In this document: positions 6,641-34,242 of the stretch, in pieces
Numbering within the stretch: position 1 is the stretch's first letter
Layout of the letters: every line of letters starts with the position of its first letter
Made by a program: the position numbers and the translations under genes
Origin: a virus
Taxonomy: Duplodnaviria > Caudoviricetes
Strand: one strand, 5' to 3'
Length of the DNA: 35,936 nucleotides
IMG/VR virus record: IMGVR_UViG_3300032212_000089
Span: 1-35,936 of that record
Notes under the pieces: model-generated
The model's database searches: none
Seen by the model: only the letters and a program-made list of their open reading frames with translations
Told to the model about the DNA's origin: nothing

Positions 6641-6970
6641 TTGAAAATGCTTATCAGGTCAACAAATACGAAAACGCTAGTTGGAGACGGAACCACTGAT
6701 ATCGATATTAGCCAATTCGCTAACGTATCGTCGGACGGTTCGGTCGACTTTGGCGCGTTAACGCCTGGGGCGACGAAAGTAATGGTTTCAAACGGCGGAC
6801 AGACTTTACAAGATTGTCCGGACGAAAATAACGTAGCGGTTCCGGCGGTCACGCCACCGAATGGAAAGTTCTTTATTCCCCCGACGGCGTTTTGTTTTTC
6901 GCGTGTGGTAATTCGAACAACTAACGCCGTAACCGCTGCACAATTTGTTTACATTTCCCTAAGAGGATAA
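6641..6970 (+). CDS. Hypothetical virion protein
   Basis: Collinear ORF in the head module; start could be ATG 6647. Confidence 0.5.
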   Translation: MKMLIRSTNTKTLVGDGTTDIDISQFANVSSDGSVDFGALTPGATKVMVSNGGQTLQDCPDENNVAVPAVTPPNGKFFIPPTAFCFSRVVIRTTNAVTAAQFVYISLRG

Positions 6971-8684: not shown

Positions 8685-8707
8685 CGGTTGTTTAGAAAGG
8701 TTTGTAA

Positions 8708-9118: not shown

Positions 9119-9156
9119 ACGAAGCTACGGCAATCATCGGTTTCGACTCGGACCGA

Positions 9157-9411
9157 ATGACTTACCGAAGGCTTTTAAACGTCGCCAAAATCAAGGTCGA
9201 ACTTGAAGTTAGGAACTCGGACGCGATAAGCCAAAGGACGGCGGAAGTAATCGCAGCAATCCACAACTATTCCGGGTTCGGTTCGCCTAAGCCGATAACA
9301 GCAAACCAAATACTAGGGAAGGAAACGTCCAGCAGCGGAAGCGGGGGAGTTGAAAAGATAAGTCCGGACGAAGTCGGGGATTTAATAGACGAAATCGAAG
9401 GGAATAGCTAA
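9157..9411 (+). CDS. Tail assembly chaperone T part (probably expressed as a G-T frameshift fusion)
   Basis: The -1 frame relative to G is open from 8968 to 9411. Confidence 0.55.
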   Translation: MTYRRLLNVAKIKVELEVRNSDAISQRTAEVIAAIHNYSGFGSPKPITANQILGKETSSSGSGGVEKISPDEVGDLIDEIEGNS

Positions 9412-11480: not shown

Positions 11481-12346
11481 GTTTTATAGAACAAGGTTCG
11501 TCGGGTCGCGCGGTTAGATCCGGTAAGAATTCGACGTTTGAGTTAAAGTTCTTTTTGAAGGACTATTCAACAACTTCGCTTGCATTGTTGGCGATGACGT
11601 CCGCCGGAACTGGCACAATTCCCGCAAGCGTTATTGTCGATGGATTCACGCTTTCAAACCGGGAATATTCGGTAGAACCCCAAGGCGCTGGCGATAAGTA
11701 CCATAAAGGGACCGTCCGTTATTCTCACAAGGAAAGCACGAAAAACACTTCGCAAAATACGGTACTCCAAGACACCGGCGACATTGAAAGCACTATCGAT
11801 TTCACGCTTGGAAAGAAGTTTATAAAGCGGGCTTCCACAACAACAATAAAAGGGACAACGGCGCCGGATCCTAACAAGTTTATTGGCTGGAATCATATAA
11901 CCGGACAAACCAAAGGGGCCAACGTGGACGGGCCTCAAGGGATGCTTAATTATACCTTGATGGTTACCGCGGCCACGGCAACCGACGCTTATATCCAAAC
12001 CCGACTAGATATGCTTGGCGGCGTGAATGATGCCACTTTCAAAGGCAAAGACGCCGGGACTTGCCGCCTTGCTCGAATGCAGCTTAGGCAGCGATCGAAA
12101 GACGGTGACGTCCATATAACCTACGGAATCCAGTATCAGCCAAAGGATGTTTTAGACCTGGCGACGCTTGATATTGGAGAAACGGGAAACATGGATATTT
12201 ACCCGTTCAGGCTTTACGAACTTATCGAAGAAGAGGAACCAACAACTTCGGGCGGACGAACGTTTATGACTCCGAAAGCTCTAGGTTTTTACGAACATCA
12301 ATTGGCCGAGGTCCCGGAAGTCGATTTTACTAACTTGGGGGTTTGA
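11477..12346 (+). CDS. Putative distal tail/tail tip protein
   Basis: Directly follows the tape measure (ATGA overlap). Confidence 0.55.
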   Translation: MSFIEQGSSGRAVRSGKNSTFELKFFLKDYSTTSLALLAMTSAGTGTIPASVIVDGFTLSNREYSVEPQGAGDKYHKGTVRYSHKESTKNTSQNTVLQDTGDIESTIDFTLGKKFIKRASTTTIKGTTAPDPNKFIGWNHITGQTKGANVDGPQGMLNYTLMVTAATATDAYIQTRLDMLGGVNDATFKGKDAGTCRLARMQLRQRSKDGDVHITYGIQYQPKDVLDLATLDIGETGNMDIYPFRLYELIEEEEPTTSGGRTFMTPKALGFYEHQLAEVPEVDFTNLGV

Positions 12347-13557
12347 TGTTTAACAACACGAAGAAAGTAATAAACGGCGACCCGTCAAAGATCGATCGGG
12401 ATTTCTACAACGCTTCGTTTGATGCCGGCGTTTTGGCGAAGCTCGGGAACGATGGGATTCTGCAGGACGGTTCGGTCGACTATGACACGAATACCAATAT
12501 TATTTCTTTCCAGAACAAAACAGGCGTAGACCTGGGGAAGTTCGATATTGTTGGGATTGGTTCGGCGGTTATTCCCGTTGCTCAAACTGGCTTCCAGACT
12601 CGCCAAGTGTTCCAAGCGGTCGCACCAACGGAAGGCGCGGAATTCGCGATTATGCAAAAGGCCGGCGGTACTGATTCGGTTCGTCCGGCGGCTTTGGGTG
12701 GTCTTAGCGTCGTAAAGATCAATGTTGGAAGCTCGAACCATGAATGGGCATATTGCACGACTTCACTAACTGAATTGACGTCCGGTAATTCCGGCAACGT
12801 TCGAATATTGAACAATCTAAGCGGGACCGGTTCCCAATGGTGCCTAGTTCGATTCCAGAAACATACGGCGCCACGGAAGATAGGCGTTTTTACTTTTGAT
12901 TTCGACCCGTTGGATTTATCTACGACGGGAACCGCTAATCATACGATCGTAGGAAGCGTTTCAAATGACGGAAGCGCGGGCGTTGGCATGTCTTCGCCTA
13001 CGTCTGGAATCCATCTTAGTAAAGGCGGAACGTATAAATTCCATTTTCCCTATCAGTACATAGCTTTGGATTGTTCGGTTTCGGCTGGCGGCGGTTCAGC
13101 GGTAATCGATGATACTGGCGGGACGTCTCAATATTTTAGGTTCTACGTCCCTGGAAAGCTCAAAGCGGAAGTTTACGTCTACGACGACGCGGGGGCGATT
13201 ACGGACGGAGTTATCGTAGATCGTCACGTAATGGAAACAAATCGAATGTGCGGATTCCATACGACAAGCGGAAGCGGTCCAGTTATTGAGTTTCGGCGTG
13301 AATTTGCCCGGTCACTAACAAACGTCTTTTCTATTGATCAAAGCACGATCGACGGGTTAACCGGAAATTGCCAAATAGCAATCTATCTAACGTTCGAAAG
13401 GGCGGAAGGAACGGGAACCGTAACCGGAGAATTTAGAAGCAATCCGGACGATATCGCGACAAACGACGACGGCGCCTATTCGAATCAAATTTGGTGGTAC
13501 GACGACCCGGAACTAGCAACGAAAATAACACCGGGAGCGGCCACCCCGCCACCGTAA
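12343..13557 (+). CDS. Putative tail tip/baseplate protein
   Basis: Synteny; Gly/Thr/Ser-rich, beta-type composition. Confidence 0.5.
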   Translation: MMFNNTKKVINGDPSKIDRDFYNASFDAGVLAKLGNDGILQDGSVDYDTNTNIISFQNKTGVDLGKFDIVGIGSAVIPVAQTGFQTRQVFQAVAPTEGAEFAIMQKAGGTDSVRPAALGGLSVVKINVGSSNHEWAYCTTSLTELTSGNSGNVRILNNLSGTGSQWCLVRFQKHTAPRKIGVFTFDFDPLDLSTTGTANHTIVGSVSNDGSAGVGMSSPTSGIHLSKGGTYKFHFPYQYIALDCSVSAGGGSAVIDDTGGTSQYFRFYVPGKLKAEVYVYDDAGAITDGVIVDRHVMETNRMCGFHTTSGSGPVIEFRREFARSLTNVFSIDQSTIDGLTGNCQIAIYLTFERAEGTGTVTGEFRSNPDDIATNDDGAYSNQIWWYDDPELATKITPGAATPPP

Positions 13558-13576
13558 GACCCAACTTAGAAAAAGA

Positions 13577-13597
13577 TACCACACACCACACGGAAGG
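13577..13597 (+). promoter_or_regulatory. Leader motif TACCACACACCA-C-ACGGAAGG overlapping the RBS
   Basis: Ends 7 nt before ATG 13605; complementary to 22964-22983 with a 1-nt bulge. Confidence 0.75.
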
Positions 13598-13604
13598 CTT
13601 TAAA

Positions 13605-15650
13605 ATGTCCTTATTCAAGCGAAACCGACTTTTCCGAAATGCAAAGGCGGACGATACCTTTTTGGATTCCGTCTTATGGATGGCTCCGGTCGACGGTGAA
13701 TTGACCGCTTTGGCCGTTGGCGATGATACCGACGCTTCGGTTGGCGGTTCGCCTGCTTATCAAGACGGCGCGGTAACGGCGGAAGGGACAATCGGAATGA
13801 TCCGTAACGGTTCGTCTCATGTTTACTTTCCGAATGCTGGCGGACCATTCGAAGATATTTCTAAGTCGTTTTGGATTGCCGGTTCTTTCAGGCTCACGGC
13901 GGCCGGTTCTTATGAGTGTCTTTGCGGAAACGGCGCGGCGTCTGCGGCGCAACCTGGATTCCGTGTTCGCGTTGCTGGCGGGTCGACGGCGCGTATTGCG
14001 ATTGATATAGCAGACGGAACAACGAAGGTAACCAAAAGCTTCGACCACCGAAGGGCGTTTCCGGTCGGCACAACCGAATCCGATATTGTCAGTTTTGTTA
14101 TCGAATTCAAAATGGTGGCGGGCGTTCCAACGGTTCGCGTAACGATCGAAGACTATGGGATCTACGGTTCTACGGCTTCGGAAGCGACATTTACCGGTCT
14201 GGATATGTCGGTAGCCGGGGAACCGCATTTAAAAGGCTTGGTCGTTGGGAGTTATAACGAATCTTCGACCAATGCTTTCGGTGGCGATATTGTTCTGCAA
14301 GCTGGCGAACTTAAAAGCGAAGATTTCCTAACGGATAAAAACCGCCACGTCTTAGGGAATTATAACCGTTCTCGATTGTACGCAGACGCGAAAGCGGGCG
14401 GTCGCGATAAGGTTAAATATTGCCATTGGTTCCACAAGGATGGCGGCGCCGGGTTCGAATTCAAAGTCCGTAGCGACGAATCGATAAACGTCAAAGTCTA
14501 CGACGTCGCAACGAAAACCCTTCAAGGTTCAAGCGGGTTACAATCTTCCACAAATGGATTTGTCTCGGCAACGGTTAGCAGTTTGACGGCAGACCAAGAA
14601 GTCGAAATCCGATTCGAAGACGCTTCGGGAACGGTTCAGCACGTCGAACTAAGGGGTAGGGTTCTTCCAGCGGCGGATAGCGACCTACACGTAGCGACAA
14701 TCGGTTGTGCCAACTATGAAGACGATACGAACTTGGGGACGCATTCTTCGACTTTTTCGCTTATTCGGAACACGTCCACGAAGCCCGATCTTTTGATAAT
14801 CACGGAAGATTTTGGTTATGTGGATCCAACGACGATCGTTTTGGCGGATTACGTCGCGCGTTGGGATACGATAATGGCGGACCCCAAAGCAAGATATCTA
14901 ACGGACCACGTTCCGCATATTTGGGGCTTTGGAGACCATAACTTCGAAGACGATGGCGATTCAACTTCTGTTTATGTCTCAGTTGTCCAGCAATTCGCAC
15001 GCCTGGCCCTTCCTACGGCTTTGGCGGCGTTCAGGGACGCAACGAACGGCGTCGACTACAAAGTCCAGTTAAACGGCGATTATCGAATCCTTTGCATGGA
15101 TACGGTAACAGGGAAGACTGATTCCGTAATGATGTCGGCAGCGGCGGAAACGTGGTGGAAAGCCCAACTAGCGGCGGCCAATACGGCGGAAGAGATCGTA
15201 CTGAATAATTGGTGCAAAATCATCGACTTTACCGGGTCGGTCAACTCTCAAAAATGGAAGTGGTACGATACCACGTTCTCGAGCGGCGCCCGCGACCAAC
15301 TTAATGATCTGTTTGACGAAATCGAAACCGTCTTCGGCGCTGTTGAAAACCACTTCGTTTCTCTATCTGGCGACGTCCACCTAAGCGGAATCGACGACGG
15401 AACAAATCACGGCGGATACGATACCGGCGCGGACTTGAACAGTATCCCGACGATTCATTCTTCAAGGTGGGTTCATAGTGTCGGCGAAAATGTCGCCAAT
15501 ACGGCATTCACGAACGCCGAAAGGAATCAACAAGGAAACTTTGGTTACCTTGAATTAATCGATTCGGATACGACGGTTGCCCTGGCGGCCAAACAATTCG
15601 AGAATACGACCCAACAGGGAACAACGCTTAACGTAACGCTAACAAAATGA
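13605..15650 (+). CDS. LamG/concanavalin-like domain + PhoD-like metallophosphoesterase domain protein
   Basis: C-terminal half has ATIGCANY, ITEDFGYVD, GDHNF, CMDT and LSGDVH, the PhoD motif order, partly divergent. ATG 13605 has a GGAAGG RBS. Confidence 0.65.
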   Translation: MSLFKRNRLFRNAKADDTFLDSVLWMAPVDGELTALAVGDDTDASVGGSPAYQDGAVTAEGTIGMIRNGSSHVYFPNAGGPFEDISKSFWIAGSFRLTAAGSYECLCGNGAASAAQPGFRVRVAGGSTARIAIDIADGTTKVTKSFDHRRAFPVGTTESDIVSFVIEFKMVAGVPTVRVTIEDYGIYGSTASEATFTGLDMSVAGEPHLKGLVVGSYNESSTNAFGGDIVLQAGELKSEDFLTDKNRHVLGNYNRSRLYADAKAGGRDKVKYCHWFHKDGGAGFEFKVRSDESINVKVYDVATKTLQGSSGLQSSTNGFVSATVSSLTADQEVEIRFEDASGTVQHVELRGRVLPAADSDLHVATIGCANYEDDTNLGTHSSTFSLIRNTSTKPDLLIITEDFGYVDPTTIVLADYVARWDTIMADPKARYLTDHVPHIWGFGDHNFEDDGDSTSVYVSVVQQFARLALPTALAAFRDATNGVDYKVQLNGDYRILCMDTVTGKTDSVMMSAAAETWWKAQLAAANTAEEIVLNNWCKIIDFTGSVNSQKWKWYDTTFSSGARDQLNDLFDEIETVFGAVENHFVSLSGDVHLSGIDDGTNHGGYDTGADLNSIPTIHSSRWVHSVGENVANTAFTNAERNQQGNFGYLELIDSDTTVALAAKQFENTTQQGTTLNVTLTK

Positions 15651-16021
15651 TCGATAATATCGTAATTGCATCTTGGAACATCGGCGTTATATCGCTTTTG
15701 TTCGCTTCAACTCACGTTGATTTGTCGGTAAGGGATACCGTTTTATTGGCGGTTGTCATTAGCGTTATCGGTGGCGTTGCGGCAGCGTGTCGAGAAATTG
15801 CCCATTCGGAAAACAAGTGGTTACACGTCGTTAAATACGCATTGAATACGGGAGTCATGGGGGCGTCGATCGCTTTCATTTTTGCCGAACAGGAATTAGT
15901 TTCTCGGGTGGTTATCCTGGGCGTCGTCGGTGTCTTGTCCCTTGGCGGACTTGGGGCGGTCGATGCGGTTATTAAGTCGGTCAAACGAAAAGCGAAGTTG
16001 GAAGATGAGCAAGACGAATAA
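15647..16021 (+). CDS. Putative holin (multi-pass membrane protein)
   Basis: 3-4 hydrophobic segments, charged C-terminus, located after the tail genes. Confidence 0.5.
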   Translation: MIDNIVIASWNIGVISLLFASTHVDLSVRDTVLLAVVISVIGGVAAACREIAHSENKWLHVVKYALNTGVMGASIAFIFAEQELVSRVVILGVVGVLSLGGLGAVDAVIKSVKRKAKLEDEQDE

Positions 16022-16472
16022 AACATTCCCCGCGGTCGTTAATATTGTGGCGGCTTTGGCCATCCTGTCTTTGATTATCTATGTTGCAATGATCGGGCAG
16101 AAAAACGCTGCTATGATTGTCGGCGGGAACGATGAACTTTACGAAATGCTTTCGGATTTCTCGTCGTATCCGGTGATTATCACGGACGATATGGGAAAAG
16201 TTACCCATGCAAACGAAGAAGCGGAAAAGGTTTTCGGCCAATTGGTCGGCAGAAATACCGTTGATTTGATGCCACAAAAAGAGGCGAACTACCATAGGGA
16301 CCACGTCTTCGGGAAAGATATGGAATCAGGTTTCCACCAAATAAAAGAAAAGGAAGCGGAGATTATGGTCCGGGGAACTCTTCGAGGGTGCAACGTAAAA
16401 GGATGGCGGACGCCGGCGGGTGGTAACGTAATCCGGATCAGGATATTTGACACGAAGAAAGAAGCGGGTTAG
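16005..16472 (+). CDS. Membrane-anchored PAS-domain protein
   Basis: N-terminal TM, then PVIITDDMGKVTHANEEAEKVFG..LVGRNTVDLMP (PAS signature). Confidence 0.7.
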   Translation: MSKTNKTFPAVVNIVAALAILSLIIYVAMIGQKNAAMIVGGNDELYEMLSDFSSYPVIITDDMGKVTHANEEAEKVFGQLVGRNTVDLMPQKEANYHRDHVFGKDMESGFHQIKEKEAEIMVRGTLRGCNVKGWRTPAGGNVIRIRIFDTKKEAG

Positions 16473-16532
16473 TATTCGCTGGGCGCTATGCGTCGGCCTT
16501 CGGGCTAAAAAATGAAAGTCAGGCTAACGCCG

Positions 16533-16559
16533 ACCCGGTCTCGTAGATCGGGTTTTTTT
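16533..16559 (+). terminator. Intrinsic terminator
   Basis: ACCCGGTCT-CGT-AGATCGGGT followed by a T run. Confidence 0.7.
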
Positions 16560-16802
16560 ATGCGCTGTCGGCTTTCCGCCTTTAGGCGTTAACTTCTTCT
16601 TCTTGGCGTATACTAGAAAAGCCGAATCGGCTTTACGCTGAATCGGCTTTAAAGTCCCGTTGTGCAAGGGAGAGACGAATTCTAAACGAATGACCCGCAA
16701 AGATTCCGTTTAAAGTCGCCTGAATCCCGTTTTCAAGGGAAGACGTTATATCGTTCCCCCAAATTGATAATCGGGAATTACCCTAAAAGAAGGGCGTTTA
16801 AA

Positions 16803-16940
16803 ATGGAAATAGAAGCGGAAATCAAAAGACTTCGGAAGAAGTGCGCAAAGCTTGAAAAGGAATCGAGACAAAATAAAATGACCTTTTGGATAATCAGCGC
16901 TTTGCTGGTTGTTTCTAGAGTTCTCGAAATGGTGCTTTGA
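16803..16940 (+). CDS. Small coiled-coil/TM protein (45 aa, not in the ORF track)
   Basis: MEIEAEIKRLRKKCAKLEKESRQNKMTFWIISALLVVSRVLEMVL; GAAGGG RBS; TGATG coupling to the next ORF. Confidence 0.6.
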   Translation: MEIEAEIKRLRKKCAKLEKESRQNKMTFWIISALLVVSRVLEMVL

Positions 16941-17149
16941 TGGATACCGTAACGAAGTTTTGCCAAGCAATAGTTTTCTTTGGGTTTGGAATGCTGCTAG
17001 TCTTCCACTTTCATTGCTTTAAAGTTGACACCGGAACCCAAAAGCCAAAGAATGGTTATTGGATAGAGGCGGACGAATCGACAAGGGATTCGACGCAGAT
17101 TTACGCGACGACTTTAGAAAGAGAAAAAAGGAAATTCGATGGCGTGTGA
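16940..17149 (+). CDS. Small membrane protein
   Basis: N-terminal hydrophobic helix; translationally coupled. Confidence 0.5.
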   Translation: MDTVTKFCQAIVFFGFGMLLVFHFHCFKVDTGTQKPKNGYWIEADESTRDSTQIYATTLEREKRKFDGV

Positions 17150-17366
17150 AGCGGAAAAAGCAGTAATCGACACGAAGAAGGCGGAATACGTGGCGGCGGT
17201 TGAAGCGGCGGCGGCGGCGTGTGAAGCGGACCCTTTTAGTCCCTCGGCCTATCTGGCGGCAGCTAACGCGATGCACCAAAAGGCGGGGGAAGTGTCGGCG
17301 GCGGTCGCGGCTTACGAAGCTTGTTTGAACAATTCCGGCGGCGGTAGTGGATCCCCCGGAAGTTGA
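17139..17366 (+). CDS. Ala-rich hypothetical protein
   Basis: AAGGA RBS; overlaps the previous stop. Confidence 0.55.
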   Translation: MACEAEKAVIDTKKAEYVAAVEAAAAACEADPFSPSAYLAAANAMHQKAGEVSAAVAAYEACLNNSGGGSGSPGS

Positions 17367-17400
17367 AATCCCTTATTCGGCGGCTGGAATCAGGCCGCCT

Positions 17401-17658
17401 TTATCGTTTCTTGGCTTCGTTAACGATCTTTCGGCGGAAATCAGGGTCCGAAACGAAAAGCTTTATTAGCTCTAGGATGGCGGCGTTTGCGGAAATCCCG
17501 AAATCACTGGAAAAGCGTTTTAAGTCTTCCCGAAGTTCCTTTGGTAGTCTCGCTATAAGTTGGACTTTATCCAATTTGAAGTCCCCGCGTTTAAATCGGT
17601 GGAAAATGTAATTAAGGGCTAGCGTAACACTAGAATAGACGCATTGGAATGATATCAT
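17401..17658 (-). CDS. Arc-like ribbon-helix-helix DNA-binding protein
   Basis: VQLIARLPKELREDLKRFSSDFGISANAAILELI; true start is probably internal. Confidence 0.65.
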   Translation of the reverse strand: MISFQCVYSSVTLALNYIFHRFKRGDFKLDKVQLIARLPKELREDLKRFSSDFGISANAAILELIKLFVSDPDFRRKIVNEAKKR

Positions 17659-17754
17659 TAGAACGTTGATTTTATTCGTTCGCGCAAAGCCCGACGGTAG
17701 GAACGCCGAAAAGAATTAAGACGATTCCGGGCAAGCGTGCTAAGAGGGTTGAAA

Positions 17755-18414
17755 ATGCTTGATTCCAACGTATTGCACCGGGCGGCGATAGATTGCCGAG
17801 ACGTTTACACGGACGACCGGCCCTTCTTCTTCTACGTCAACGACGAATGGTATTTCGACGAATTCGAAGACGTTACCGAAATCACAATCCGGGGAAGCGA
17901 TCGGCCAACGAGTTCCGACGGGTTTTTGGATTGGTTAAAGAACCTGGACACGAAAGTAGTTGACTTCTTCAATTATCGGGTAGCTCGAGGATTCAGGCCG
18001 AATACGTTAATCGATGGGATGGAAGAACGTGGAAACGAGTTAAGGCGGGACAAGCCAGTCCGAATCAAAGGCCATTCGAGGGGCGGCGCTTTGGGGCAAA
18101 CCCTAGCGATCCACTTGGACCAACGTGGCTTTAAAATCGATTCGGTCATAACGTTTGGTTCTCCAAGGATTTCGCGGGAAACGATAAAGACCGAATGGCC
18201 CGTTTGGCAATTCAAAGCCTTCGGGGATCCGGTTTGGCGTGTTCCGTTCCTTCCGCCATTCACCTGGCGGCATTCGGGGGAGACGTTCAAGGTTGGAAAC
18301 TGGCGGACCTTTGAAAACCTACGGTCAAAGTTTGGGTTTTGGACTTACTCTAGGACGGCGATTAGTTCGCATTTAATGCCGAATTACATCAATTTATTAA
18401 AGGTTCCGGAATGA
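17755..18414 (+). CDS. Lipase class 3 (alpha/beta hydrolase)
   Basis: IRGS, GHSRGG nucleophile elbow, ITFGSPR, DPVWRVP, C-terminal His (SHLMPNY). Confidence 0.85.
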   Translation: MLDSNVLHRAAIDCRDVYTDDRPFFFYVNDEWYFDEFEDVTEITIRGSDRPTSSDGFLDWLKNLDTKVVDFFNYRVARGFRPNTLIDGMEERGNELRRDKPVRIKGHSRGGALGQTLAIHLDQRGFKIDSVITFGSPRISRETIKTEWPVWQFKAFGDPVWRVPFLPPFTWRHSGETFKVGNWRTFENLRSKFGFWTYSRTAISSHLMPNYINLLKVPE

Positions 18415-18641
18415 TTCTAGGATTCTTCCCCGGTCCGCTTAACTGGCTGTTTGATGGTTATCTGATTCTTTGCGTTTGGCCGTTGGCGGTCTGCGCTCTT
18501 GTCCTGGCGGGGGTTGTCCTAGTCGGGATTGTTCAAATAGCAAAACGACTTTGCGTTTATCTGAAAGGGACTTTTTCGAACCTGTATTGGAGTATTAAGA
18601 AATGTTGTTTGCGAAACTGGAAGACGTCGAAACGTCTTTGA
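18411..18641 (+). CDS. Small membrane protein
   Basis: Hydrophobic segment; ATGA overlap. Confidence 0.45.
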   Translation: MILGFFPGPLNWLFDGYLILCVWPLAVCALVLAGVVLVGIVQIAKRLCVYLKGTFSNLYWSIKKCCLRNWKTSKRL

Positions 18642-18961
18642 TGGCTCAAATAAACTTGGCTTGCGAAGGTTGCGATTGCGACCGCGAAGCCGAAGAACTT
18701 TTGGAAGATTTGCGGGAAGTTGCGATCCACGAACGGGATTTTTCGCTTGTCCGGAAATTGAGACGGTTGCGATTTCAACCGCTTCGCCGTTCAAAGTTGG
18801 TTGATCAAATAAACGAACGGGCGAAGTTGGACCTTGCCAATTCTGGAAGGGTGGGGGAATTCGGGGACGGTCAATTCGCTAAGTGGCTTATCGAATGGTT
18901 TTCGGACGAAGGTTGGAAAATCATTATTTCATTCATCAAGGCCATTGTTGCGATCTTCTAA
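18602..18961 (+). CDS. Hypothetical protein with amphipathic C-terminus
   Basis: GGAG RBS; collinear. Confidence 0.55.
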   Translation: MLFAKLEDVETSLMAQINLACEGCDCDREAEELLEDLREVAIHERDFSLVRKLRRLRFQPLRRSKLVDQINERAKLDLANSGRVGEFGDGQFAKWLIEWFSDEGWKIIISFIKAIVAIF

Positions 18962-18981
18962 GTTGAATTGGGGCTAAAGAC

Positions 18982-19170
18982 GTGAAAGTAGAAAAACCTA
19001 GCTGGTTGTTGTTTGTTGTTTCTTTGCTTGCTGTCTTGGCCCCTATGTTTTTGATGGCGGGAACCGTTGATAGTGACGAATTCGCCAAGTCTGGATTGGG
19101 ACTCGCAACGGTTGCGGGCGTCGTAACGGTCGTCAAGACCTGGGATTGGATGACGGGGAAAGTAAAATGA
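18982..19170 (+). CDS. Two-TM protein (holin-like)
   Basis: Two hydrophobic helices in 62 aa. Confidence 0.5.
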   Translation: MKVEKPSWLLFVVSLLAVLAPMFLMAGTVDSDEFAKSGLGLATVAGVVTVVKTWDWMTGKVK

Positions 19171-19922
19171 AAAGAACGTTTTTAGTTTTGTTTCTGCTAA
19201 CGGTTGGCTTCGGGTTTGCATCCCCGACAAGTCCGCCGAAAGTGGCTTTAAAGCCACTGATTCAAGTTGAATCGCCAAGAGTCACGGCGCCGGATAGCGT
19301 CGAAGTTGGGGACGCGGTTGTCTTGGCATTGTCTGAAATCAAAGAAGCTCGGGTCGTTTGGATTGCGGACGGGGTTAACTTCGTTGTTACCGATCGGCAT
19401 CGAGAAATCATCGACACAGATGGCGATACAATCGAATTTAAATCGGTTCCGGCTAGTTCCTTGATCTTTAAAGCGGAAAAGCCGGGGGTTTTTACGTTTA
19501 CTTGTTTGGTCATCCCGCACGATATCAAGCAAGTAATAAAGCAAACTCGACACGTCGTAGCCGTAAAAGGAAAGATTCCGGACGAAGGCGGAAGCGACGA
19601 CGGGAAGAAGAAAGACCCGGAAGAAGACCCGAAACCAAACGCGGACGTTGGCGCCGTAGTGGTTATCGAGCAAAGAAGCGTACTCAATGAAGCGTCGCGA
19701 AATATCCGAATGTCGGAAACATGGCGGAAGATGTCGCAGACAAAAGAGATTGTCCAGAAGGCTAGTTGGTATGATGTTGATAACCCGGAAGCGGCGGATT
19801 TTGTCCCCGCGGCCAAGTCTGTAGGTTTGCCGGCTGTCTTGTTATTTGATAAGTCGGGAACCTTTCTAAAGGCTTACCCGTTACCGAAAACCGAAAAAGC
19901 CCTTTTGGAGTTGGTCCAATGA
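19167..19922 (+). CDS. Secreted protein, Ig-like N-terminus and thioredoxin-fold-like C-terminus
   Basis: Signal peptide MKRTFLVLFLLTVGFGFA; GLPAVLLFDKSG motif. Confidence 0.55.
   Translation: MKRTFLVLFLLTVGFGFASPTSPPKVALKPLIQVESPRVTAPDSVEVGDAVVLALSEIKEARVVWIADGVNFVVTDRHREIIDTDGDTIEFKSVPASSLIFKAEKPGVFTFTCLVIPHDIKQVIKQTRHVVAVKGKIPDEGGSDDGKKKDPEEDPKPNADVGAVVVIEQRSVLNEASRNIRMSETWRKMSQTKEIVQKASWYDVDNPEAADFVPAAKSVGLPAVLLFDKSGTFLKAYPLPKTEKALLELVQ
19242..19257. repeat. 16-bp palindrome, copy 3 (within CDS, encodes VALKP)
   Basis: Read directly. Confidence 0.95.
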
Positions 19923-20761
19923 TGGAAACGGAAACCGGAAGAATAGTTGGAACATTGGCCGAAGCTCGAAAGCTTGGGAAGCGAGTAAAGTCTACGTCTG
20001 TACTTCCAAATTGGACTTGGGAAGAAGCGATCGAAGCCTATAAGAATTCGCCAAAGTGGAAGCGGAAGGATTGGTTTCCAATCGACGTTTTCCAGAAGAA
20101 CCAAGGCGGGCGCGGAAGTTGTAATTTCTATATGCAGGGCGGTATTTCCGAACGGGTGATAATGCAGAACTTTGGGTTCTATATCAAGCTTTCCCCGGAA
20201 TACGGTTACGCCCAAGCGGTCGACGGTAACGATATGGGCAGCTTGCTTTCGGAGTCCTTGAAATTCGGGCAAACGAAAGGGCTGCCGCCATATCTCGCAA
20301 GGCATTACGAAAAGATTCGAAAAAGGGATTTCAACGCATCAGACCGCGAAAACGCCTTGTTCTTTTGTGGTTTCGAATGGGAACCAATCAACAACTATAA
20401 GGAAGCTTGGATTGCTTCGGTCTTGGGGTATCCCGTAGCAACGGCAATTCATGCAGGCCGGAACTATGAACAGTTGCAAACGTCCGGGAAGTTCAAGGGG
20501 TTTTGCGGAGTAAGCAACGGCGGCGGGAATCATGCCGTTCTATGCGATCGTCCAATAATCAAGAACGATATTCCTGGACTCGAGCAACCGGGTAGTTGGG
20601 GCGTTAATATCCATCGGGACGGAATCGCGACATTGCACGAAGGACACTTCAAGCAAACGATTAACAATCATCAATTTTGGATTGCCACCGGAATGAAGAT
20701 CAATCGTCCAAAAGTTGAAACCAAATTCAAGAAGCATATCGTTTATCACTTTGCGGCATAG
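19919..20761 (+). CDS. Papain-like (C1) cysteine peptidase
   Basis: NQGGRGSC (catalytic Cys), LSPEYGY, GNHAV (His), GSWG. Confidence 0.8.
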   Translation: MMETETGRIVGTLAEARKLGKRVKSTSVLPNWTWEEAIEAYKNSPKWKRKDWFPIDVFQKNQGGRGSCNFYMQGGISERVIMQNFGFYIKLSPEYGYAQAVDGNDMGSLLSESLKFGQTKGLPPYLARHYEKIRKRDFNASDRENALFFCGFEWEPINNYKEAWIASVLGYPVATAIHAGRNYEQLQTSGKFKGFCGVSNGGGNHAVLCDRPIIKNDIPGLEQPGSWGVNIHRDGIATLHEGHFKQTINNHQFWIATGMKINRPKVETKFKKHIVYHFAA

Positions 20762-20770
20762 GAGAATATT

Positions 20771-21337
20771 ATGCGCGGACTGTTTTTAATTGCGTTTTTG
20801 TTGCTGTCGACTACGGCAAACGCTACCGATTTGATCCTTAAAATGCCAAAGTTGAGCATGGAAAAGGAAGTCGACACGAAGGAACCGGAATTCCTGGCGG
20901 GAACGTTCCCCCGAATCCAAGACGGTATCGAATGCGATCCAGTAACGGGGTTGTGAAGGAGTACGAAGCCCGCGGTAGTTATCGCGCAGGATCCCCCAAA
21001 GGCATCTTTAAAGGCTTCCGATTGCACTTGCGAAAATTGCAGTTGTGGAGTTAGGGCGGCTGAGCCGGTGAAAGTTGCCGAACCGGTTGTAGTGTCGGAA
21101 ATGGTTTCTTCACCCGTCTGTCCTGATTGCGGAAGAACCGATTGCCAAAATTCTGGCGGTCTTTCGTCCTCGGGGAATGCGTTCGTTACGAATAGTTCCG
21201 GACAACTTCCCGCAACGGTGGGCGTAAGTCGCTTCCGGACGCTTAGAGGAAGCCCACGGTTAACGCGGGATTCATCCGGGACGGTTTATCGTGTCGCAAG
21301 GGTCCGGACGTTCTGGCGTCGCCTATGGGGCTTGTAA
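20771..21337 (+). other. Secreted Cys-rich protein interrupted by a single in-frame TGA (20954-20956)
   Basis: ORFs 20771-20956 and 21068-21337 are in the same frame with no other stop between them; AGGAG RBS; signal peptide. Confidence 0.6.
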
Positions 21338-21383
21338 TCGGCTAGAATAGATTAACAACCCGGCCGATAGTATCCGCCGGCCT

Positions 21384-21414
21384 AACGCCCCGTAAAAGGG
21401 GCGTTTCTGTTTCT
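21384..21414 (+). terminator. Probable intrinsic terminator
   Basis: AACGCCCC-GTAAAA-GGGGCGTT followed by TCTGTTTCT. Confidence 0.55.
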
Positions 21415-21453
21415 TGGTTGAAAGACGTCCTTTTTGCTGATATCTTCTTTTGA

Positions 21454-21473
21454 GTTACCACACCCCCACGGAA
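21454..21473 (+). promoter_or_regulatory. Leader motif GTTACCACAC-CCCC-ACGGAA
   Basis: Upstream of ATG 21495; 18/20 complementary to the attP-trailer element. Confidence 0.7.
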
Positions 21474-21494
21474 AAAACCTTTTAGGGGGGCGTT

Positions 21495-21887
21495 ATGTCT
21501 ACCAAGATTGACGACAAGATCGCGGAAATCGACGCGAAAATAGAACGATTGAAGATTGAAAAGGGCGTATGGCAGGAAGCGAAAAGCGTAGTTCCTGGAA
21601 TAGTCGAAAACCCGCAAGTGGCTTTAAAGCCACCCGAGAAACCAAAAAGGAAGCGGGCGCCAAGGAAAGACGCAACAAAACTAACCCTTCAATACTTCTT
21701 AGATCGGGACAATAAACAAGCTTCCAAGCGGGATATTTCCGAAGAAATCGGCGTTCAGTCCGGAAGCGTCCAAAACGTTCTAAAGCTGGCGAAGAACGGT
21801 TACGAACAAATCAAGGTCGGAGACCGGAACGTCGAATGGAAACTAAAGAATTCGGTTTATCAGAAAGCCAAGAAGGCCCAACAGTAA
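21495..21887 (+). CDS. Coiled-coil + winged-HTH DNA-binding protein
   Basis: ASKRDISEEIGVQSGSVQNVLK HTH; C-terminal wing (EWKL). Confidence 0.6.
   Translation: MSTKIDDKIAEIDAKIERLKIEKGVWQEAKSVVPGIVENPQVALKPPEKPKRKRAPRKDATKLTLQYFLDRDNKQASKRDISEEIGVQSGSVQNVLKLAKNGYEQIKVGDRNVEWKLKNSVYQKAKKAQQ
21618..21633. repeat. 16-bp palindrome, copy 4 (within CDS linker, encodes VALKP)
   Basis: Read directly. Confidence 0.95.
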
Positions 21888-22055
21888 CCCGACGAAAACA
21901 CCGGAATAGAAACCGGGCGAATGGATCTTCCTTGCCCGGTATCCGTGTTTTTTAGCGTCTTCTATGTAAGCGTCCCTTGGGTCATCAAAGGAACGAATAA
22001 TCGTCTTTTGGTCATCCTTCGCCAATTCGACGCGTAATTGATTGGTTGATCGCAT
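21843..22055 (-). CDS. Hypothetical protein with C-terminal TM
   Basis: 70 aa with hydrophobic tail, downstream of the integrase. Confidence 0.45.
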   Translation of the reverse strand: MRSTNQLRVELAKDDQKTIIRSFDDPRDAYIEDAKKHGYRARKIHSPGFYSGVFVGLLLGLLGFLINRIL

Positions 22056-22144
22056 TTATATAACCGGTCAATCCTTCCACGGCGCGGTTGAAAGCTTTCG
22101 AGCCGCGGCCCAATTCCAAAGCTTTAAACCCCGCCGATTCTGCC

Positions 22145-22690
22145 CTATCTTTCGCGGATTTTAATCCAGTCCCAACGAATGCGCAGGAGATCGGCCCGGC
22201 GTAATCCGGTATCCCAAGCGGCCATTAAGAGCGATTGAGCGTAATACTTCTTCCGAATCTGTGTTGATTGAAAGCGACCACGTAGAGAATCGCAAGCTTC
22301 AATTAATCGGCGGACTTCTTCCGGCGTCCAAACGTCCTTCGGGGTGTCGTGGCACCTGGGCGACTTTATCCGCATCTTTCGATAACGAGTTACCCGCAAG
22401 TCGAAAGCGTCCGCCAAGATGGCCAGAATGGCCGCCTTCCTTGATTTGACCGTATACGGTGAAACGTTCTTCGAATACTCCGAAAGCCAACGATTGATTA
22501 TCAAATCGCCATTCTGTCTACCGGTTTCTTTGTCGATGGTCTTTTCCAATTCCGCGAAACGAACTTCACCGCCATGATACTTTTCAAAGACGTTAAGCGC
22601 GTTCCGATACGAAAGAATGGTCGGAATCGCTAAATCGTTTTCTTCGGTGTATTGGGTCAAGAACTGACGAACTGTTTTTAGCTTTTGCAT
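22145..22690 (-). pseudogene. int: Tyrosine integrase, C-terminally truncated
   Basis: Core-binding domain, WTPEEVRRLI and DTGLRRADLL (first catalytic Arg), then a stop; no HxxR or catalytic Tyr region. Likely start is ATG at 22690. Confidence 0.8.
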
Positions 22691-22884
22691 CGTGGTGGTA
22701 ATTCCCGATTGAATATTAAACCGGGCGTCCGTGCGCGTTAACGCAATCCGTTTATTGCCTAATAGATTGTAAATCGGGAAAACGCAGTTAACAAACGTTA
22801 AGAAATTCGAAAAAGCCTGAAATAGAGAAAAAGCCTTTAAAACGCGGGTTATTTCGGCGTTACACACAAGATTTTAGGGATTGA

Positions 22885-22937
22885 ATTTAGGATCCAGTGG
22901 GAGAAATCCCGTGCAGGTTCGATTCCTGTTTCGCCCA
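22885..22937 (+). other. attP core: 3' half of tRNA-Leu(TAG)
   Basis: Anticodon loop TTTAGGA, stem strand TCCAG, variable arm GGGA-GAAA-TCCC, T arm GCAGG-TTCGATT-CCTGT, acceptor strand TTCGCCC-A. No 5' half. Next to the integrase. Confidence 0.9.
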
Positions 22938-22939
22938 TT

Positions 22940-23003
22940 CGAACCGGGGTTATTTACGGAAGTCCTTCCGTTGGTGTGTGGTAACCCCATTAACCCCGGT
23001 TCG
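22940..23003 (+). ncRNA. Candidate tRNA-trailer antisense sRNA
   Basis: 13-bp perfect outer stem CGAACCGGGGTTA/TAACCCCGGTTCG enclosing an ACGGAA-GTCC-TTCCGT hairpin and unpaired TGGTGTGTGGTAAC; complementary to multiple phage gene leaders. Confidence 0.6.
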
Positions 23004-23062
23004 TCCTTTCATTGTCACCGAATTACGCTAGAATTTCGCATTATTACGGAGAAAGTTACCCA

Positions 23063-23275
23063 ATGATTGAAGCATTTATTAAATTGCTCGAGAGGGAAAT
23101 CGAAAAGACGAGCAAGAGGAAAGTTGCCAAGAAGGCCAATATCGGCCGAAGGACGTTAGACGGATACGTTGCTCGGGAAATGTCCCCCAACATTTCAAAG
23201 ATAGAAGAGATTTTGGAAAATCTTGGCTATTCCGGAACAATGAAGTTCAAGCGATCGACGAAAAAGGTCGCTTAG
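23063..23275 (+). CDS. XRE/Cro-type HTH regulator
   Basis: SKRKVAKKANIGRRTLDGYVAREMSPNISKIEEILENLG; GGAG RBS before ATG 23063. Confidence 0.8.
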   Translation: MIEAFIKLLEREIEKTSKRKVAKKANIGRRTLDGYVAREMSPNISKIEEILENLGYSGTMKFKRSTKKVA

Positions 23276-23307
23276 CGGTCTGTTTGAAAAATAATTTAAG
23301 AAAAATT

Positions 23308-23332
23308 ACCCCGCTTTTTGTCGGGGTTTTTT
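23308..23332 (+). terminator. Probable intrinsic terminator after the HTH gene
   Basis: ACCCCG...CGGGGT followed by TTTTT. Confidence 0.55.
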
Positions 23333-23440
23333 AATGCGCAGATTACTTTTTTGGAAATAATTATGAGATAGGGGTGGCGTTGCTGACTGCGCCACCATAA
23401 GATTCGACCAAAGCAATAAACGGGGTGTAAAAACTCCAGT

Positions 23441-23483
23441 GTTACCACACACCAAACCCCCGAGTACCACACTCACGGAAGGA
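23441..23483 (+). promoter_or_regulatory. Tandem leader motifs GTTACCACACACCAA and TACCACAC-TC-ACGGAAGGA
   Basis: Upstream of ATG 23490; the first is a 15/15 complement of 22971-22985. Confidence 0.75.
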
Positions 23484-23489
23484 TTTCTT

Positions 23490-23888
23490 ATGGGCTTCGA
23501 TTATTACGATCGCCTATTGTCGCAAGTGGCGGCCGACGAAGCGGCGGAAGGTTTTTACGATACCCGCCTTCGTTGTTGCGAGTGTCAATCTTTTGAATTC
23601 CCTTTGGATTCTCCCAACGATTCTTCGGACTTATTTTGTCCTGAATGCCTGGAAAACGTCGAAGCCGAATTAGCTTTGGAGTTCTTGCCTTGCCCTTCGC
23701 CTTCGTCGTTAGTTGCTGATTTTATCAGATCGCAACGGGATGAATTATTAAAGGCGATTGGCTTACCGTTCTATCTTCTAACGACTCCTAACCGAATGGC
23801 TTGGGAAACGGCGAAGTTAAACACGAAGATAAGAAGAATCGAATTTAAAGCCGAAGCAAGTAAGAACGGGCTTTTTCTGAGTCCGTAA
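23490..23888 (+). CDS. Hypothetical zinc-binding protein
   Basis: CCEC...FCPEC; GGAAGGA RBS. Confidence 0.55.
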   Translation: MGFDYYDRLLSQVAADEAAEGFYDTRLRCCECQSFEFPLDSPNDSSDLFCPECLENVEAELALEFLPCPSPSSLVADFIRSQRDELLKAIGLPFYLLTTPNRMAWETAKLNTKIRRIEFKAEASKNGLFLSP

Positions 23889-24043
23889 ACGGTAGGCTTT
23901 CGCCTTCCCGAATCCGCAAACGATTAAGTTCGTTCTTACTTGTTTATTACCACACGAAAAGGAATGTTATGTCTAGCGAAAGTAGGCAGCGAGTGAAGCC
24001 ATCGGGGGAGGAATCCAGTGAGTGAACGAAAGGAAAGTTTGAA

Positions 24044-24232
24044 ATGCTTGTAATGTCACGGAAGCGAGACGAAGTAGTCGTAATCAGCGCCTACGACGCA
24101 AAGGGTAATCCAATTCAGGTAAAGGTGATGGTCGTTGATATCCGGGGCGATAAGGCCCGTTTGGGGTTTGATGCTCCGAAGGATATTTCGTGCCATCGTT
24201 TGGAAATTCAACAGAAGATCGAAGGGGTTTAG
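24044..24232 (+). CDS. csrA: Carbon storage regulator CsrA homologue 1
   Basis: MLVMSRKRDE...VVDIRGDKARLGFDAPKDISCHRLEI. Confidence 0.9.
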   Translation: MLVMSRKRDEVVVISAYDAKGNPIQVKVMVVDIRGDKARLGFDAPKDISCHRLEIQQKIEGV

Positions 24233-24234
24233 TT

Positions 24235-24423
24235 GTGGTTAAAGATGAAAAAGTGATTCGTGACAAGATAATACAAATCCAATGCGTCCCGGTTCCTAAT
24301 AATCACCGGACTCAATGCACCTTTTTTATTTATGCGTTGGATGAAACAGGGCGAATTTGGTCGAAGCGTGGCGACACCGACGACCGTTTCCGAGAAGAAA
24401 GTTTAAATTTTGTAGACGCTTAG
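24235..24423 (+). CDS. Hypothetical protein
   Basis: ORF between the csrA copies; start uncertain. Confidence 0.45.
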   Translation: MVKDEKVIRDKIIQIQCVPVPNNHRTQCTFFIYALDETGRIWSKRGDTDDRFREESLNFVDA

Positions 24424-24439
24424 GTGGCTTTAAAGCCAC
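24424..24439. repeat. 16-bp palindrome, copy 5 (abuts a stop codon)
   Basis: Read directly. Confidence 0.95.
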
Positions 24440-24522
24440 TTTGGTAATTGAATGGCGGGATTGCCTTCGGGTTAATCTCGGCTCTGAATTACCACCACAC
24501 CAAAAGAAGAAGGGAATTTCTA

Positions 24523-24723
24523 ATGCTTGTTCTATCAAGGAAAAAGGGCCAGACAATCGATATAGCTGGCGGCGCGAAAGACGGGGGAGTAACGATAACC
24601 GTTCTTTCCATTGGCGGAAGCGTTCGAATTGGGACGGAAGCCCATAGGGACGTATCTATCGTTCGTGGGGAACTTCGGAAGCGTGACGAAATGAAGCAAT
24701 CGGTTTCGTCAAATGAAGAATAG
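24523..24723 (+). CDS. csrA: Carbon storage regulator CsrA homologue 2
   Basis: MLVLSRKKGQTIDI...ITVLSIGGSVRIGTEAHRDVSIVRGEL. Confidence 0.85.
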   Translation: MLVLSRKKGQTIDIAGGAKDGGVTITVLSIGGSVRIGTEAHRDVSIVRGELRKRDEMKQSVSSNEE

Positions 24724-27859: not shown

Positions 27860-27883
27860 TACCACACACCAACAACGGAAGGA
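27860..27883 (+). promoter_or_regulatory. Leader motif TACCACACACCAAC-AAC-GGAAGGA overlapping the RBS
   Basis: Ends 6 nt before GTG 27890; 21 complementary positions with a 3-nt bulge. Preceded by a 12-bp GC stem (27800-27848). Confidence 0.75.
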
Positions 27884-27889: not shown

Positions 27890-28741
27890 GTGACAACGGA
27901 AAAGCTACGAGTTAACGAAATTGACATTAACAACAGCCCCCAAACGCGAATCAAATTAGACGCGGAAACAATAGAAACCTACGGGGAACTTTGGGACGAT
28001 ACCGACAATTGGCCATTCAGGGAAAAGATTGTCCTTTTCAATGTCGGAGAAAACGAAGACGGATCCAGACGTTTAATTTGCTCGGATGGCTTCCATAGAT
28101 ACTTTGCCGCCGTTAGTCGGGATAAGTCGGTTTTGGCTAACGTTCGAAACGGGACGATGCAAGAGGCTATCGACTACGCCTTGAAAGCAAACCACGAACA
28201 CGGTTTAAAGCGTTCAAGGATGGACAAGCGGAACGCCGTAGATATGGCGTTGAAAATGGAATGCCATAAGGATTTGTCCAATAGGGAATTGGCGAACCTT
28301 TGCGGCGTCTCGAAAGACCTGGTTGCAGACGTCAAGCGTTGCGCGGAACTGGACAAGGAAGCCCGGAAGGAAAAGAAGAAGAAACCGGAAAACAAGCCCG
28401 TTGAAGCGGAAAAGGAACCGGAAGTCGAAAAGCCAGAGTTTCCACCGGTAGACGATACGCCCGTCCCGAATCTAGTTTCCGGTCAAGAGTTGCCAGAAGA
28501 CCAAAGGAAAGAACGGGTCGAAATCTTACGGAAGAAGATAACTTCCCGGTTTGGCGAAATCATCCGCTTAGGAATGGAAGTTACCCGGACATTCAAAGGC
28601 GCGGACGAACTCTTCGCAACGGATTCCTACGATGAGAATCAAGCGAAGATCACGGAATATATGCAGCCGGTCTTCGGCGTTTTTAATGAACTTTGCGACG
28701 GGAAAGAGATAACCCCGTTGAAGATCGAAAAGGTGGGATAA
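27890..28741 (+). CDS. ParB N-terminal-domain + HTH protein
   Basis: PQTR, SDGFHRYFAA, ANHEHG, then SNRELANLCGVSKDLVADVKR (HTH). Confidence 0.75.
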   Translation: MTTEKLRVNEIDINNSPQTRIKLDAETIETYGELWDDTDNWPFREKIVLFNVGENEDGSRRLICSDGFHRYFAAVSRDKSVLANVRNGTMQEAIDYALKANHEHGLKRSRMDKRNAVDMALKMECHKDLSNRELANLCGVSKDLVADVKRCAELDKEARKEKKKKPENKPVEAEKEPEVEKPEFPPVDDTPVPNLVSGQELPEDQRKERVEILRKKITSRFGEIIRLGMEVTRTFKGADELFATDSYDENQAKITEYMQPVFGVFNELCDGKEITPLKIEKVG

Positions 28742-30279: not shown

Positions 30280-30626
30280 GTCAGAAAATGAGCGCGGAAG
30301 ACGCCTTCCGGGAAAGCGTCGAAATACTACGGGACGCCTTCGAGCCGGCTTTAAGGCAACTAGAGACGGTTTCGAAAGCCTTGATTCTCCAAAGGACGAT
30401 CGACCTGGAAAGGAAACTAACGTCGGTTGAATCGGAAATAGTTCTTTTGAAGTCCGAAAACGAGCAAATGAAACAGGGAATGCGGACGTTAAGCGAAAGC
30501 CGGAAGCAAGCTAATACAAGGATTGCCAAGATTGAAAACAAAGGGAAAGAACTTTCGGGCGGTCAAGTCGAGAACCTGGGCGAAGAACGCCAAGCGTTCC
30601 AAGAATCGGAAGCGGGGGCGGTATGA
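30276..30626 (+). CDS. Coiled-coil hypothetical protein
   Basis: ATGA overlaps at both ends. Confidence 0.55.
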   Translation: MSQKMSAEDAFRESVEILRDAFEPALRQLETVSKALILQRTIDLERKLTSVESEIVLLKSENEQMKQGMRTLSESRKQANTRIAKIENKGKELSGGQVENLGEERQAFQESEAGAV

Positions 30627-30871
30627 CGTTTGGAAGTTTGTTTTCTGGAATTGGCGGGATTGACCTTGGTTTAGAAAGGGCTGGATTAACTTGTCGTTGG
30701 CAGGTTGAAAACAATGAGTTTTGCAAGCGGGTACTTAAAAAGCATTTTCCAAGCGTCGAAAGGTTTAACGACGTTAGGGAATTTGCCGTTGAAAAGGAAG
30801 AAGATTTAATAGTCGACGGAATTGCTGGCGGGTTTCCTTGTCAAGGCGTTTCGAATGGCGGAAAGCGATAG
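30623..30871 (+). pseudogene. DNA cytosine-C5 methyltransferase, N-terminal fragment
   Basis: Motif I SLFSGIGG to motif IV GGFPCQ, then a stop at 82 aa; ENV/QxRxR motifs not seen downstream. Confidence 0.8.
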
Positions 30872-33182: not shown

Positions 33183-33443
33183 ATGGAAGCAACGAAGGCC
33201 AAGAAATGCAAAAATTGCGGTTCGGACGTAATCGGAAGACGCCCGCAAGCCCTTTATTGTTCGGATAAATGCGCGAAGGGCGCCTACTATCATCGACACA
33301 AGACGCCGTCGATCAATCGGAAGAAGTGCAAGGGATGCGGAAAAGGGTTGGAACATCGAAGAAAAGACGCGGTTTGGTGTTCGAACAATTGCCACGTTAT
33401 GACTAATTACCACAAAAAGAGGGGTGGCTTTAAAGCCACTTGA
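33183..33443 (+). CDS. Tandem zinc-finger protein (CxxC...CSxxC x2)
   Basis: CKNCG...YCSDKC and CKGCG...WCSNNC; GAGGGG RBS. Confidence 0.65.
   Translation: MEATKAKKCKNCGSDVIGRRPQALYCSDKCAKGAYYHRHKTPSINRKKCKGCGKGLEHRRKDAVWCSNNCHVMTNYHKKRGGFKAT
33424..33439. repeat. 16-bp palindrome, copy 8 (last codons of a CDS)
   Basis: Read directly. Confidence 0.95.
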
Positions 33444-33683: not shown

Positions 33684-33831
33684 TTTGAATCGCCAAGGCG
33701 GGGGACGTCGTAGCCAGACGCCCCCGTTATTTCTATTGAATTTTACGCGCTGAAAATAAAACACTGGATTGGAAAGGCGGAAAGCGGTAAATTACCGATA
33801 CCAAATTACCACACCAACACGAAGGCGCATT

Positions 33832-34242
33832 ATGATCGTCAAGACCGCTAAGTCGGTATCTATTAACTCCGGTTCCCCGTCTTTGGGAATGGAAACGGAA
33901 ACCAAAGGAAAAAGCCCCCAAGAATTCTTCGACCTTATGGCGATGTCCAAAAAGTTCGTCAAAGGCTATTTGCTCCAAGGAAACGACCCGCCAGACCAAA
34001 AGACGATCGACGGCGTAGACCGCTTTGAGATCGTCGGCCCGTTCAAGCTCGGCAAATTTGCCTACGATTCGGGGACGAAGAAAGTAACGTTTAAAGCGTC
34101 ATTCGATCTTGGAAACTTGGAATTGAACGACCTGGAAGACGTAACGGAATCGTCCTTCTTCTTCGATATTCGAGATGTTACGGACACGCTAATCGAGCCG
34201 GCAACGCTTACGGACGGCGAAAATGGACAATCAGCCGAATGA
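33832..34242 (+). CDS. Hypothetical protein
   Basis: ATG 33832 preceded by the leader motif TTACCACACCAACACGAAGG (33806-33825). Confidence 0.55.
   Translation: MIVKTAKSVSINSGSPSLGMETETKGKSPQEFFDLMAMSKKFVKGYLLQGNDPPDQKTIDGVDRFEIVGPFKLGKFAYDSGTKKVTFKASFDLGNLELNDLEDVTESSFFFDIRDVTDTLIEPATLTDGENGQSAE

Follow-up and report, generated by a model that had tools for sequence, protein, structure and literature searches.

A tRNA-Leu trailer hairpin beside a phage integrase gene as a candidate antisense RNA against phage leaders

Closest described systems

The RNAs closest to the one considered here are P4 CI (PMC4825925) and the C4 RNA of P1 and P7 (PMC5499578). They are short, processed stem-loop RNAs that pair with a temperate phage's own transcripts in the lysogen, and both are RNase P substrates; P4 CI, which has two targets, brings about termination and is excised from the transcript under its control. 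In mycobacteriophage BPs, the repressor gene contains attP, and the protein loses a degradation tag upon integration (PMC4557955). The 3'ETS-leuZ RNA of E. coli is a host-encoded tRNA-Leu trailer that is cut by RNase E, bound by Hfq, and acts by base pairing as a sponge for sRNAs (PMC6191717). The start-associated repeats (SAS) of Cluster K phages have a role stated as unknown (PMC3203893, PMC11373665). They are asymmetric and phage-specific, lie over the ribosome-binding region, are nearly all in sense orientation and rare in the host, and mostly precede genes with an intergenic gap, while K1 phages carry one opposite copy.

The locus analyzed here displays a complement to its own phage's transcripts in a hairpin loop, as P4 CI and P1 C4 do, the pairing being predicted. 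It matched no Rfam model of these RNAs and thus is no member of either family; moreover, the candidate would be the 3' trailer of a tRNA, directed at the ribosome-binding sites of eight scattered targets. As in BPs, integration itself would switch on a repressing element, but attP lies outside genes here, and an RNA would be switched on by capture of a promoter. In contrast to 3'ETS-leuZ, the candidate is phage-encoded with mRNA targets, and Hfq, which Hfq-dependent sRNAs would need in the host, was found in none of five planctomycete genomes of the likely host type; for the same reason, the comparison with GcvB drawn in the first-pass annotation is a poor one. The leader motif shares with SAS its asymmetric, sense, start-proximal, and phage-specific character with rare opposite copies (10 sense and 2 opposite). 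However, it does not meet the 13-bp SAS consensus, being another sequence in another host phylum, and consists of 10 variable sites instead of the 11-19 near-identical 13-mers of Cluster K; the opposite copy there lies close to the end of the genome rather than at attP.

A literature search of partial coverage found no antisense RNA from an attP trailer. Compared with P4 CI, P1 C4, BPs, and 3'ETS-leuZ, a candidate RNA from an attP-tRNA trailer with eight scattered leader targets is likely new.

Phage genome and probable host

The analyzed stretch of DNA (the window) is the entire virus record of 35,936 bases, in which no terminal repeat was found. It encodes a lambda-like terminase, portal, capsid, tape measure, ERF/YqaJ, helicase, two CsrA genes, an HTH gene, and a tyrosine integrase. 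The tRNA core, CsrA genes, and integrase relatives point to a planctomycete as the probable host; the host organism itself was not found. One sequencing run (X1, labelled as a microbial mat) contained DNA of the window and is its possible source, while none of the runs listed was an RNA data set containing it.

The product of gene 27890-28741, located ahead of the helicase gene, was called ParB-like (PHROG E 3e-5, Atlas 0.97). A perfect 16-bp palindrome is present in nine exact copies (at 2407, 2547, 19242, 21618, 24424, 31432, 33153, 33424, and 33668), compared to none in 100 shuffles; several copies are at gene ends and some are intragenic. Together with the ParB-like gene, it is reminiscent of parS or KorB-type sites. 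Copies of this palindrome in other viral contigs turned out to belong to unrelated elements. An 82-aa fragment of a cytosine methyltransferase is encoded at 30623-30871. Gene 13605-15650 has two divergent alleles in run X1 (13883-14795), unlike the other long pieces from this run listed for positions 1-20000, which show 0-1 differences.

Attachment-type core and integrase

The following features define the attachment region:

22885..22937, plus strand: attP-type core, the 3' half of tRNA-Leu(UAG), with the anticodon at 22888-22890 and the discriminator at 22937, without CCA
22145..22690, minus strand: tyrosine integrase gene (int), truncated to 181 aa compared with 307-310 aa in relatives
23063..23275, plus strand: HTH_3 gene (70 aa) directly 3' of the trailer, outside the top 14 predicted targets and a possible repressor

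The core is intergenic. CCA was likewise encoded in none of 35 planctomycete-titled tRNA-Leu(UAG) loci, picked among the first 80 of 122 listed. A tRNA 3' half next to a tyrosine integrase gene is a layout common to relatives: within the integrase family, 15 of 18 viral and 13 of 52 genomic loci have a T-arm that is located upstream of int and on the other strand. In three of seven genomes examined, a matching complete tRNA-Leu was located 37-48 kb away; a fourth case is doubtful. Three closer integrase homologs are known, with 59-87% identity; integrases with 68% and 59% identity are encoded on contigs of 22 and 32 kb, respectively.

The second half of int is absent from the window. In run X1, the window's truncated allele has a depth of about 10 and a second deletion allele a depth of 4, while a contig with a depth of 5.8 continues into the missing half, as read by hand against relatives, and represents a minority allele. 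The gene is polymorphic in this run at positions 22104-22218 and 22159 of the window. One contig of the run spans attP unbroken, so no integrated form was seen. An intact integrase together with an observed attL/attR junction, expected of a tRNA-targeting temperate phage, was not found.

Structure of the trailer

Downstream of the core, the following elements were recognized:

22938..23003, plus strand: tRNA trailer, a 2-nt linker and a perfect 13-bp stem enclosing a 38-nt interior; candidate small RNA
22956..22971, plus strand: inner 6-bp hairpin masking the anti-Shine-Dalgarno part, with a 5' arm identical to the targets' ACGGAA
22972..22985, plus strand: G/U-rich seed, weakly folded, with the apical loop GUGGUA

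The perfect stem proposed in the first-pass annotation was confirmed with exact coordinates: its arms (22940-22952 and 22991-23003) form a 13-bp inverted repeat beginning 2 nt past the discriminator, and its fold has a z-score of -4.4, with none of 200 shuffles as good. The same annotation described an exposed seed beside an anti-Shine-Dalgarno (anti-SD) hairpin. The inner hairpin holds, while the seed is not fully open, forming a weak hairpin that costs 3.5-4.4 kcal/mol to open. The identity of the 5' arm with ACGGAA would fit a toehold design with a masked anti-SD. The suggested comparison with Rfam gave no family at gathering score in the window, and the only match in the searched region 21300-24700 was a tRNA-like one over the core (E 4.5).

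No plus-strand promoter-like site of at least 7/12 was detected in 22700-22885, between int and the core, which fits integration dependence but is a weak test. In related phages, a hairpin with a U-run occupies the equivalent position, so transcription of the trailer stretch is expected. Such ordinary terminator-like hairpins of relatives, devoid of leader complement, and the fact that the feature is known from one genome only would agree with the stem being a phage-supplied terminator or processing signal for the rebuilt tRNA, whose loop captured an inverted piece of a leader without regulatory use. We regard this as improbable. A structured 38-nt loop with a poor U-tract is unlike a terminator, and the terminator scan made no call. 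The trailer sequence resembles a consensus of several different leaders, not a copy of one; besides, any abundant RNA with perfect complements of 14-15 nt would be expected to pair anyway.

The minus strand folds as well as the plus strand (-31.6 vs. -31.8; minus-strand z-score -3.4) and has GGAC at a hairpin tip, which resembles CsrA sites. A leftward promoter-like site (7/12) extends to 23011, 8 nt short of the stem, and two csrA genes are within 1.8 kb. A short leftward RNA showing UUACCACAC and the GGAC-loop hairpin could thus be a decoy for a CsrA-like or other leader-binding protein, lost or rewired on integration. This is the least credible of the readings considered and quite improbable: 7/12 sites are common (9% background), every SD resembles a CsrA site, int has promoter-like sites of its own that are closer, and only one GGA loop is present, in contrast to known CsrA sponges with many. 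The complement spans an SD, but the first ATG on the minus strand follows only after about 25 nt and starts a frame of 29 codons that runs antisense to the tRNA; no minus-strand frame fitting this SD was found.

Leader motif and its distribution

The trailer complement is present at the following sites, listed with predicted pairing energies in kcal/mol:

27860..27883, plus strand: leader site of the ParB-like gene 27890-28741, the strongest predicted target, -23.0
13577..13597, plus strand: leader site of gene 13605-15650 (weak PhoD-like match), -21.9
23441..23483, plus strand: two tandem leader sites of gene 23490-23888, -18.9
21454..21473, plus strand: leader site of gene 21495-21887 (weak DNA-binding-domain match), just behind a promoter-like site, -11.0
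33806..33814, plus strand: seed-only leader site of gene 33832-34242, -9.5
23947..23955, plus strand: seed-only site ahead of an 18-codon frame (23969) upstream of csrA1, -8.6
24489..24498, plus strand: seed-only site ahead of csrA2 (24523), -7.3
22692..22701, minus strand: seed-only site immediately before the int start codon, -8.6
33407..33414, plus strand: tenth and weaker sense site, 48 nt upstream of gene 33456, -4.7

The nine sites originally listed, in front of eight reading frames, were all recovered where expected and in sense orientation, with TACCAC 10-47 nt upstream of the start codon, although the length of pairing is uneven. The whole 23-nt complement is found only in the leaders of 27890, 23490, and 13605, and partly in that of 21495, while the other four contain an 8-11 nt seed. 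The site at 23947 is followed by the frame at 23969, which has 18 codons and precedes csrA1. The two CsrA-like genes (24044-24232 and 24523-24723) are each behind a motif site, one of them via this short frame. A coupling of two layers of translation control is possible.

The word TACCACAC occurs nine times, compared to 0.19 expected and 0 of 100 shuffles reaching this number. Seven copies are in leaders, one is in the trailer, and one, absent from the original list, is at 6903-6910; the probability of seven of nine falling in leaders is about 1e-8, with starts chosen by hand. A longer pattern with ACGGA is present in four sense copies and once in the trailer. In 401 Planctomycetia genomes, it is at background level, at most five per genome, which indicates that the leader motif is phage-specific and rules out a host-wide leader signal. 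The motif was also compared with a backwards sigma-70 promoter (extended -10, TANNNT on the opposite strand); the last T is present in 2 of 10 sites, as read by hand, and this candidate was rejected. The sense copies are unstructured in their own mRNA strand (z-scores from -0.9 to +1.3). The spacing between core and SD differs among leaders through insertions and deletions, which RNA bulges would tolerate, and thus suits RNA pairing.

Protein-binding site as an alternative

As the main competing reading, the same motif could be bound by a protein, serving as a directional operator in DNA or as a site in the mRNA recognized by a translation factor of the phage, much like the start-associated repeats or stoperators of mycobacteriophages. 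In that case, the trailer would carry an additional site, located on the attP arm or within a leftward transcript running towards int. A matrix built from the sense sites found 10 sense copies, one of them new, and two opposite copies scoring 19.2 and 17.4 bits, among the best. Three of the 10 sense sites are 9-13 nt behind promoter-like hexamers (9% background), a typical operator position. An HTH protein, a ParB-like protein, and two CsrA proteins are among the phage products, and a degenerate copy was seen by eye on the left att arm near 22859.

The second opposite copy is in a late gene that is probably real:

6884..6931, plus strand: second motif complement in late gene 6647-6970, a hairpin with the GUGGUA loop as in the trailer

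Its hairpin is less distinct (z-score -1.9; 11 of 200 shuffles as good), but the complement near 6903 likewise ranks the same eight leaders first. An equally good complement inside a coding gene is possible for an orientation-free DNA site; it may also be due to chance or represent a late second seed. Together with the promoter-like hexamers, this copy keeps the protein-site explanation alive. Nevertheless, we consider a protein site rather unlikely. All 10 start-proximal copies are in sense orientation with variable spacing, and the further 13 nt of the trailer copy through the SD, the perfect stem, and the masking of the SD part would be left unexplained. The integrase family (about 308 aa) also appears to have the size of recombinases without an arm-binding domain.

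Cluster K is both a lead and partly a counter-example. Anaya has 16 sense SAS and one opposite copy in the 35 kb examined. This lone opposite SAS forms the loop of a hairpin in a structured, mostly unannotated gap (JF704106, about 59825-59927; L377:33826-33928). Conservation of the gap was seen in 150 of 50,697 phage records. Compensatory changes affect 9 of 40 predicted pairs (covariation term -0.14), and the gap matches no Rfam family at gathering score. The region may be regarded as a candidate anti-SAS RNA of K1 phages. On the other hand, the anti-SAS loop is intact in four of nine aligned Cluster K phages, Pixie lacks an opposite copy in the 35 kb examined, and Ekdilam and Marshawn retain unchanged SAS in the last 13.5 kb with no intact complement there. 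The persistence of SAS without an intact looped complement favors a protein site.

Predicted pairing of the trailer with leaders

With opening costs included, the eight named leaders rank 1-8 of 62 (median 0), which agrees with the expectation that they would top a genome-wide leader ranking, although the scored segments and start codons were chosen with the motif known, and the ranks are therefore partly circular. By raw duplex energy, the top six of 62 leaders are those of 27890, 23490, 13605, 21495, 24523, and 33832, while 23969 and int rank 30 and 26. The mean of the top five duplexes is -38.0 compared with -26.5 +/- 1.6 for shuffled loops, none of 300 reaching it. Complements of 12 nt in three leaders were found for 13 of 35,900 windows of 38 nt on both strands, with the trailer being first. 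Counts of 7-8 nt matches did not single out the trailer; matches of 10-12 nt do discriminate. Plain co-folding gave net binding for three of the eight leaders, but binding inside a closed loop is beyond its modelling. According to these energies, three predicted targets are strong (-19 to -23 kcal/mol, across the SD) and five, including int, are weak and seed-only. As a target, int has the predicted site, but it is among the weakest, and the gene is truncated.

Search for relatives

No relative carrying this trailer was found in any collection searched. Integrase queries returned no loci, one distant locus, the own record only (metagenomes), and 18 distant loci, respectively; the ParB-like query returned nothing and the capsid query one fragment, with three further weak phage records. 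A T-arm plus seed pattern gave 63 loci in viral contigs, with the window's arrangement absent among the matches listed, and the leader pattern gave 13 loci, all with single chance-like matches. DNA of 22860-23300 matched 74 of 401 genomes, in all cases only in the tRNA part. A T-arm followed by GTGTGGTA was found 23 times in 401 Planctomycetota genomes, compared to 16 for the control, in no case with the arrangement of the window.

For 19 trailers of distant relatives, the best matches to their own elements had P of 2e-4 and 1e-3 compared with 8e-12 for the window. None of the 19 showed a comparable trailer-leader match; 17 were retested on leaders after two near-duplicates were dropped. Since integrase identity to these relatives is only 25-36% and many of the loci are incomplete, this result mainly narrows the range of the feature and is less of a test of it.

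A word similar to CCCTAGT or CCCTAAT, frequently located in a hairpin loop, is found within 40 nt of the tRNA end in many distant relatives (L064, L294-L310, G337, G348). It was rejected as a case of co-variation, its complements showing no clear enrichment in leaders, and is perhaps an att-arm site. In G962, a palindrome of the same half-site as the leader motif is located just before the SD of an unrelated integrase gene behind tRNA-Arg, in two copies 48 kb apart (L353:11223-11250 and L352:8478-8505). This position would be consistent with a protein-binding site.

Proposed mechanism and implications

The stem, the complement, and the enrichment, orientation, and position of the motif are real and far beyond chance. 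RNA pairing is favored by the sense-only leader copies, the complement extending through the SD where no ribosome needs it, the masked anti-SD, and the placement of the stem at the tRNA end. We assign a probability of about 0.5 to the 66-nt trailer hairpin being an Hfq-independent antisense RNA against the leaders of eight phage frames. The same RNA gated by integration is a more tentative proposal. The first-pass annotation had suggested a multi-target antisense RNA tied to integration, and this is partly supported: judged from the anatomy in a single genome, such an RNA suits the locus better than any rival, whereas int is broken, the minus strand folds equally well, and the distant relatives lack the feature.

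For this antisense RNA, the following sequence of events may be envisaged. Integration would rebuild the tRNA and convert phage DNA into its 3' trailer, so that the host tRNA promoter would read into the hairpin, probably in the lysogen. The RNA could be supplied by a cut near the tRNA end, by RNase E/G rather than RNase Z, or persist as a stable precursor. RNase E/G was encoded in all five planctomycete genomes of the likely host type, while RNase Z exceeded the cut-off in none of them; release of the trailer by an RNase is plausible. The closed stem would shield both RNA ends. First contact would be made between the GUGGUA loop and UACCAC; at the three best leaders, pairing would then displace the inner hairpin and cover the SD, while masking would keep the anti-SD off host mRNAs without the seed. 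As the expected outcome, three genes would be strongly silenced and five, including int, damped to a lesser degree, perhaps alongside the HTH protein encoded just downstream.

Integration into tRNA genes is common in phages, and the replaced downstream DNA is usually read as a terminator. If such a trailer can be a regulatory RNA, integration alone could establish immunity, with no need for an additional promoter or protein. It is conceivable, though more doubtful than not, that integration is itself the switch that places a prophage-only, toehold-type RNA on a host tRNA, where it would be produced at tRNA levels and simultaneously silence the first genes of several modules, and that start-associated repeats elsewhere, including those of Cluster K, are landing sites for RNAs of this kind. 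Since Anaya combines many sense copies with one looped complement, a direct test of the purpose of start-associated repeats is offered.
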